Source of the DNA: Escherichia coli
GTDB lineage: Bacteria; Pseudomonadota; Gammaproteobacteria; Enterobacterales; Enterobacteriaceae
NCBI RefSeq assembly: GCF_003334315.1
Contig: NZ_QOWR01000048.1
Reading direction: 5' to 3' (one strand)
Length of the DNA stretch: 36,812 nt
The position numbers and the translations under genes were made by a program. The notes beneath the pieces are model-generated. The model had not been told where the DNA came from. It saw nothing but the letters and a program-made list of their open reading frames with translations, and made no database searches. The number at the start of each line of letters is the position of its first letter. The stretch's first letter is position 1. This document shows, in pieces, positions 21,150 to 21,285 of the stretch.

Positions 21150-21285
21150 ATGTTTGTTTACTCTATGGATTTCGTGTTGCAGGAAGGCGGCAAGCGAGTG
21201 AACTCCAGGAGCTTACAATAGTAAGTGACTGGGGTGAACGAACGTAGCCGCAGCACATGCAACTTGAAATACGACGAGTAAATCG
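21150..21285. repeat. ERIC (IRU) enterobacterial repetitive intergenic consensus element
   Basis: Contains GTGAACTCCAGGAGCTTACAATAGTAAGTGACTGGGGTGAACG, which matches the ERIC core (the ERIC1R/ERIC2 primer regions) with a few mismatches. Flanking arms are imperfectly palindromic. Confidence 0.75.

Follow-up and report, generated by a model that had tools for sequence, protein, structure and literature searches.

The 388-bp gap between the divergent genes ydiJ and ydiK in this Escherichia coli sequence (a 36.8-kb stretch of DNA, referred to throughout as the window) contains a complete ERIC element, and we consider it highly probable that this MITE is best understood as a part of the ydiJ leader whose effect, if it has any, would be on the ydiJ message at the level of RNA. 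ERIC/IRU elements are miniature inverted-repeat elements, that is, non-autonomous mobile DNA of Enterobacterales. The copy described here has defined boundaries, is transcribed, can fold into a hairpin, is unevenly distributed among strains and species, and has changed much more slowly than synonymous sites.

A full-length ERIC element between ydiJ and ydiK

Three features define the locus:

18012–21068, minus strand: ydiJ coding sequence, D-2-hydroxyglutarate dehydrogenase, 1018 aa (open reading frame list and RefSeq annotation of the identical sequence)
21157–21282, transcribed on the minus strand: ERIC/IRU element (end-to-end alignments, hairpin folds, family covariation and an orientation footnote in Delihas 2007)
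21457–22569, plus strand: ydiK coding sequence, AI-2E family transporter, 370 aa (open reading frame list and RefSeq annotation of the identical sequence)

Base for base, the ydiJ–ydiK gap (21069–21456) equals that of K-12 MG1655, and the 24 differences from MG1655 found in 8 kb all lie outside 19527–22388; the window is a close relative of MG1655 and not MG1655 itself. Window positions correspond to the NC_000913.3 position minus 1,747,617. Two sRNA genes flank the locus, RprA (22755–22862, plus strand, 115 bits) and rydB (17091–17151, minus strand, 81.6 bits). Distant genera, too, retain RprA downstream of ydiK, and in Buttiauxella (locus L070) an ERIC follows directly after rprA, at 2920–3046.

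The initial annotation had recognised an ERIC/IRU repeat at 21150–21285, in the middle of the gap. Both the identification and the size of the gap proved right, but the limits have to be drawn in by 7 and 3 nt, to 21157–21282, which gives a full-length element of 126 bp (the family measures ~127 bp) at gap positions 89–214 of 388 and thus in the middle only approximately. Our reference was the Wilson & Sharp consensus for E. coli ERICs, 127 nt long, which Table 1a of Delihas 2007 gives in reverse complement; going by a footnote on orientation in that paper, the plus strand of the window copy has the Wilson & Sharp orientation. Read along the minus strand (21282–21157), the element is identical to the consensus at 102 of 127 positions (80.3%) from the first base to the last, and it matches the Salmonella copy SeRU-1 at 108 of 127 positions (85.0%; BLAST E = 7e-36) with both termini aligned. 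Similarity therefore reaches the two ends and does not stop at the primer-like core.

BLAST found this one ERIC in the whole window. Across 5,426 complete E. coli genomes the ERIC query matched 48,904 places (median 10 per genome, range 2–16), 12 of them in MG1655, and further ERIC copies occur in Enterobacter, Citrobacter, Buttiauxella and Yersinia loci. The curated NC_000913.3 record annotates no repeat feature at this position, and Rfam holds no ERIC family. The sequence at 21157–21282 is an ordinary, already known type of repeat: ERICs have been known since 1990–91 (Sharples & Lloyd 1990; Hulton et al. 1991), and the K-12 copies have long been available for cataloguing.

Several details set this copy apart from the consensus. 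Its termini are degenerate, reading TTTAC...GTAAA against TATAC...GTATA. For the sites of the ERIC-PCR primers, whose sequences are substrings of the printed consensus, we found two mismatches at ERIC2, which falls within the conserved central core, and a recognisable ERIC1R site with a 1-nt deletion that results in 7 ungapped mismatches. These degenerate ends and the damaged ERIC1R site are what would speak for a chance palindrome, or for some other repeat family that shares just the PCR-primer core with ERIC. Such a reading has practically no probability left, however, and is already refuted by the full-length alignments at 80–85% identity and their E value; the thousands of paralogous matches and a hairpin register that the window ERIC has in common with 12 other copies likewise argue against it. 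The element resembles the ERIC/IRU/RU-1 family in length (126 against 127 bp), end-to-end similarity, conserved core, imperfect palindromy, an intergenic and transcribed location, multiplicity of copies and strain-variable presence, and differs from it in its degenerate termini, the ERIC1R deletion and a single-copy 61-bp segment that co-varies with it.

Two Rfam models also give full-length alignments to the window ERIC, namely V_AS5 (RF02818, a Vibrio antisense RNA; 36.9 bits, E = 2e-6) and Ysr49 (RF02766, a Yersinia sRNA; 27 bits), but the scores lie far under the gathering thresholds (96 and 95 bits) and the copy is not a member of either family. The V_AS5 model matches other ERIC copies too, again below threshold, and from these similarities the V_AS5 and Ysr49 'RNAs' look like transcribed ERIC-type elements.

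Transcription and folding of the element in the ydiJ leader

Published maps of transcript 5' ends agree with the earlier proposal that the repeat is transcribed as part of a neighbouring mRNA, and they supply the positions of the ydiJ and ydiK starts that the proposal had called for. SMRT-Cappable-seq, which captures full-length 5'-triphosphate transcripts (Yan 2018; coordinates of U00096.3, confirmed on the sufA entry), has the b1687–b1686 and b1687–b1686–b1685 transcripts starting at 1768914/1768915 on the reverse strand and b1688 transcripts starting at 1768976 and 1769011 on the forward strand. The 5'-end profile of Kim 2012 gives a ydiJ start at 1766938 (U00096.2; 49 reads, UTR of 229 nt), prints the sequence upstream of it as ...AAAAAAATGTGGTACAACAACTCAGG, and gives a ydiK start at 1767036, which is window position 21395. 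On the window these data place the following features:

21297–21298, minus strand: transcription start of ydiJ-menI(-ydiH), upstream of the ERIC (Yan 2018 and Kim 2012)
21305–21313, minus strand: probable extended −10 of the ydiJ promoter, TGgTACAAC, at −16 to −8 (read from the sequence against the mapped start)
21069–21297, minus strand: ydiJ 5' UTR, 229 nt, as against 54 nt in strains with the empty allele (two maps of transcription starts and the empty-allele alignment)
21359 and 21394, plus strand: ydiK transcription starts (Yan 2018; 21395 in Kim 2012), both to the right of the ERIC

The ERIC thus occupies nt +16 to +141 of the 229-nt ydiJ-menI-ydiH leader. It lies outside the ydiK mRNA, at least 77 bp upstream of the ydiK starts, and the ydiJ and ydiK promoters stand back to back, 61–97 bp apart, to its right. 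Being situated in the ydiJ 5' UTR, the element therefore neither separates nor spaces the divergent promoters; the initial annotation had assigned it to a divergent promoter region, and of that description the divergence of the genes stands, but the repeat follows the ydiJ start instead of lying between the promoters.

A simple sigma-70 consensus scan of the gap found no promoter, and the ydiJ promoter was placed from the mapped starts instead. Its probable extended −10 (TGgTACAAC, 21313–21305) is kept as TGaTACAAC across Enterobacteriaceae in the aligned gaps of loci L005–L060. The promoter appears to use this conserved extended −10 (TGnTACAAC), with no recognisable −35.

Two further 5' ends fall in or beside the element:

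21148, minus strand: second ydiJ 5' end (Kim 2012, position 1766789, 25 reads, UTR of 80 nt)
21227, plus strand: weak 5' end in the ERIC loop, with TACAAT upstream at 21214–21219 (Kim 2012, 3 reads)

Along the mRNA, the end at 21148 comes 9 nt after the ERIC and 2 nt ahead of a hairpin in the adjoining 61-bp segment. It may mark either processing or weak internal initiation, and its position would fit a cleavage in the single-stranded linker beside the hairpin, leaving an 80-nt leader capped by a 5' hairpin. The site is not a good match to the RNase E motif, and with regard to RNase III, no p19-captured duplex falls within the ERIC among the p19 dataset entries listed.

Alternatively, the ERIC might carry promoters of its own, with both ends as true initiation sites. 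Both come from a dataset enriched for primary transcripts, and TACAAT agrees with the −10 consensus at 5 of 6 positions and, as read from the sequence, is correctly spaced from 21227. We nevertheless regard initiation from promoters of the element's own as quite unlikely: SMRT-Cappable-seq lists neither end; no acceptable −35/−10 pair precedes 21148, where the promoter scan found none and the −10 candidate is poor; the T at 21219, the last base of TACAAT, is missing from all other filled-allele (ERIC-bearing) sequences compared except those of E. coli L087 and L088; and the three reads at 21227 amount to a very weak signal.

The terminal inverted arms of the element are 25 nt long and 76% complementary. 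As RNA, the plus strand folds at −56.1 kcal/mol (z = −7.4) and the minus strand at −39.2 kcal/mol (z = −3.6), and in neither case did any of 200 shuffled sequences fold as well. One consensus hairpin emerges from an alignment of 13 copies, some of them from Enterobacter, Buttiauxella and Yersinia; 9 of its 28 pairs show compensatory changes. The strand of the ERIC present in the ydiJ mRNA is the one that Delihas prints, and it is the weaker-folding of the two. Among orthologues of the window copy, we found no clear sign of strand-specific structural selection, the substitutions favouring the hairpin clearly on neither strand.

We also considered whether the ERIC arm at 21179–21193 masks the ydiJ ribosome-binding region (21073–21087) by anti-Shine-Dalgarno pairing. 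This pairing is present in the minimum-energy fold of the whole leader, and the partition function gives it a probability of ~10%. Translational occlusion was rejected because of this low ensemble weight and because the predicted accessibility of the Shine-Dalgarno sequence is equal in the two kinds of leader (probability of the Shine-Dalgarno and start codon being unpaired, 0.07 in filled against 0.09 in empty leaders).

Within the ERIC, the ydiJ leader also contains an open frame of 31 codons, MCCGYVRSPQSLTIVSSWSSLACRLPATRNP (window 21258–21163, minus strand), a frame whose openness in ERICs Delihas had already remarked on. Lacking a preceding Shine-Dalgarno sequence, it is probably not translated.

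Distribution and history of the insertion

The comparison of the locus across E. coli that had been suggested at the outset resolved 5426 complete genomes into two allele classes. The 388-bp arrangement was found in 4256 of them (roughly 78%), at 96.6–100% identity, and a gap of 213 bp in 1165 (~21%); no intermediates between the two were seen in this set. In the short allele, window positions 21096–21281 (186 bp) are replaced by ATGAGAGATTA. The presence of the repeat does vary between strains, as had been expected, but a simple gain or loss of the ERIC does not describe the variation: what changes is a 175-bp composite of the ERIC, an unrelated 61-bp segment and a small cluster of substitutions.

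21096–21156, no strand: 61-bp segment, single-copy, accompanying the ERIC and absent from the empty allele

The 61-bp segment occurs in exactly the ERIC-bearing genomes (4256 of 5426), with one copy in each. It can form a hairpin with a 7-bp stem (21116–21122 with 21140–21146), and the direct repeat GTGATGT brackets it at 21093–21099 and 21147–21153. No homologue was found elsewhere, and the segment is absent from the other enterobacterial ydiJ–ydiK gaps retrieved. A derivation from a truncated ERIC was not established: comparison with full copies gave shuffle-based p values of 0.2–0.6, and comparison with restricted ERIC references was marginal (p = 0.03–0.1, shuffles). At locus L043 the corresponding segment proved to be a fragment of an ERIC (p ≤ 0.002).

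Among the carriers of the short allele are APEC O1, Nissle 1917, O25:H4 and UPEC isolates, which belong to phylogroup B2. In at least one strain with the short allele (L002, NZ_CP148423.1, Z1323CEC0015) the flanks are 99.9% identical to the window, where typical carriers of this allele reach ~99.0%; this pattern suggests a short recombination tract that imported an allele of the ancestral type.

To place the two alleles in a wider context, we used 80 species-representative Enterobacterales loci retrieved with YdiK. In most of these the ydiJ–ydiK gap measures ~200–213 bp, and in several Citrobacter exactly 213 bp; the junction and arrangement of the E. coli empty allele (213 bp, GTGATGAGAGATTAATCG) resemble those of Citrobacter. 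Judged from these alignments, the short allele is the ancestral state, since a simple deletion cannot derive it from the long one. Elements of the ERIC family have 5'-TA-3' at their ends and duplicate a TA target site. The empty allele has a TA exactly at the right-end junction (GAT-TA-ATCG), the left junction being masked by the 61-bp segment. The long allele is common to E. coli, E. albertii, E. whittamii and two other Escherichia lineages, a distribution that implies, as far as the sequences tell, either that the insertion is old and the polymorphism has been retained, or that lineages have exchanged the allele.

Independent ERICs were found at almost the same site in other enterobacteria:

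Locus L043, 1213–1339, same orientation as the window copy: ERIC beside a true ERIC fragment
Locus L050, 1203–1328, opposite orientation, the sole such case among the ERICs found in these gaps: ERIC
Locus L052, 1091–1215 and 1330–1456: two ERIC copies
Locus L022 (Citrobacter amalonaticus), 1143–1349: long ERIC variant of 207 bp that contains an internal insert, located a few bases beyond the site

The copies in L043 and L050 end in TATA, and three of the independent ERICs directly adjoin the conserved box that the E. coli copy also abuts. Locus L052 comes from a sequence titled 'Chryseobacterium sp. 18061' (CACSKA010000003.1); its ydiJ and ydiK are 83–89% identical to those of E. coli, and it is evidently an enterobacterial sequence from a mislabelled or contaminated assembly. 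Inserts unrelated to ERIC also occur at the E. coli position, in Salmonella enterica subsp. arizonae and diarizonae (L018, L021; GC-rich, ~50 bp) and in Citrobacter sp. NCU1 (L011; ~87 bp). The simplest reading would be that, in a gap otherwise under constraint, only this short part of the ydiJ leader tolerates TA-targeting elements.

Possible roles of the element

In the reading we prefer, the ERIC landed at an AT-rich TA site, 15 nt beyond the point where ydiJ transcription starts, and is consequently copied into RNA within the ydiJ-menI-ydiH leader. The leader has thereby grown from ~54 to 229 nt and gained an imperfect hairpin of roughly 55 pairs. Any effect of the element would then be expected on the processing or stability of the ydiJ mRNA, by analogy with Yersinia ERICs, and not on promoter activity or ribosome access.

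In Yersinia, ERICs co-transcribed with genes alter mRNA stability in an orientation-dependent manner (reviewed in Delihas 2008 and Delihas 2011). The window copy is comparable in that it, too, forms part of an mRNA and is able to fold into a long hairpin, with a second 5' end adjoining it; it differs in that the Yersinia elements mostly lie between or after coding regions and act on the transcript of the upstream gene, whereas the copy at ydiJ sits in a 5' UTR with no upstream gene. The model drawn from the Yersinia elements has an RNase E site, exposed in the element, change the abundance of the flanking transcript; the co-transcription work itself reportedly goes back to De Gregorio et al. 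in 2005. The Correia/NEMIS elements of Neisseria offer an analogous mode, being MITEs with TA termini that often lie 5' of genes, are co-transcribed and, according to a review, affect mRNA processing, but they are unrelated in sequence and have documented promoter and IHF motifs, none of which is established for ERIC. REP/BIME elements of E. coli are likewise transcribed extragenic palindromes able to influence mRNA stability; unlike the ERIC, REP units are ~35 bp long, GC-rich and usually 3' of genes, and the two have no sequence relationship.

The element could, however, be a neutral passenger, the ERIC and its 61-bp neighbour being tolerated in the sole dispensable stretch of a short, constrained gap with no measurable effect on ydiJ or ydiK. 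We hold this to be a serious possibility, if short of probable in its own right, and nearly as likely as a role at the RNA level. The ~21% of E. coli genomes and most other Enterobacteriaceae that do without the insertion are in keeping with neutrality, as are the unchanged predicted accessibility of the ribosome site, a substitution pattern without clear structural selection and the unrelated insertions at the same spot elsewhere (+50 bp in Salmonella, +87 bp in a Citrobacter). Divergence within Escherichia points the other way. The E. coli and E. albertii copies of the ERIC share 94.4% of their bases and those of the 61-bp segment 91.8%; for ydiK the identity is 87.2% overall and 66% at third codon positions. 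Neutrality is weakened by this conservation of 92–94% against a difference of ~34% at synonymous sites, because neutral DNA would be expected to diverge much more. In this comparison the insert has changed much more slowly than silent sites, and so has the rest of the regulatory gap; the slow substitution could reflect constraint on the gap as a whole, or recombination, rather than a function of the ERIC.

A different kind of consequence, at the level of DNA, would arise at the right end of the element, which abuts a block, AATCGTTTGCGT, that is conserved across Enterobacteriaceae.

21277–21292, no strand: PurR-like operator AGTAAATCGTTTGCGT, at +6 to +21 of the ydiJ mRNA (weight-matrix match)

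The operator bound by PurR is a 16-bp palindrome, ACGNAAACGTTTGCNT. In AGTAAATCGTTTGCGT the first 6 nt are the ERIC terminus (AGTAAA), followed by 10 nt that form a half-site conserved in Enterobacteriaceae. The terminus may have been exapted to complete a PurR operator, with PurR binding, and possibly repression, at ydiJ in ERIC-bearing strains but not in those with the empty allele. With a weight matrix built from just 14 published sites listed by Cho 2011, the candidate site scores 16.1–17.1 bits, as do validated PurR sites; it ranks first in the window (next best, 11.0 bits), and in 36.8 kb of shuffled sequence ~0.03 matches this good would be expected. At the same place, the empty allele reaches 9.3–10.2 bits, which is background level. 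Conservation of the half-site CGTTTGCGT across Enterobacteriaceae and a PurR ChIP-chip region that is listed for ydiJ/ydiK in K-12 and spans the gap (Cho 2011) are consistent with binding. That region, however, was reported with adenine only, at a modest ratio of 1.08, and its authors called no motif; neither ydiJ nor ydiK figures among the genes reported to be repressed by PurR; some species without an ERIC reach similar scores (an Enterobacter, for example, 16.0 bits); and the matrix has 14 sites behind it. We therefore consider an exapted operator doubtful, although not negligible. Still more doubtful is the fuller proposal that AGTAAA completes a functional PurR site at +6 to +21, by which a mobile repeat would have placed the D-2-hydroxyglutarate dehydrogenase operon under the influence of purine status in those Escherichia that bear the ERIC and not in the empty-allele lineages. 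If this were true, the repeated, independent landings of ERICs at the site in other genera would hint at more than target-site chance. The locus is a candidate case in which the end of a MITE forms part of a transcription-factor site.

For annotators and users of ERIC-PCR, this copy has a damaged ERIC1R site, and the difference between strains at the locus amounts to 175 bp and not 127. More broadly, the common two-allele system of 388 and 213 bp constitutes a natural experiment on the effect of an ERIC element in a 5' UTR.
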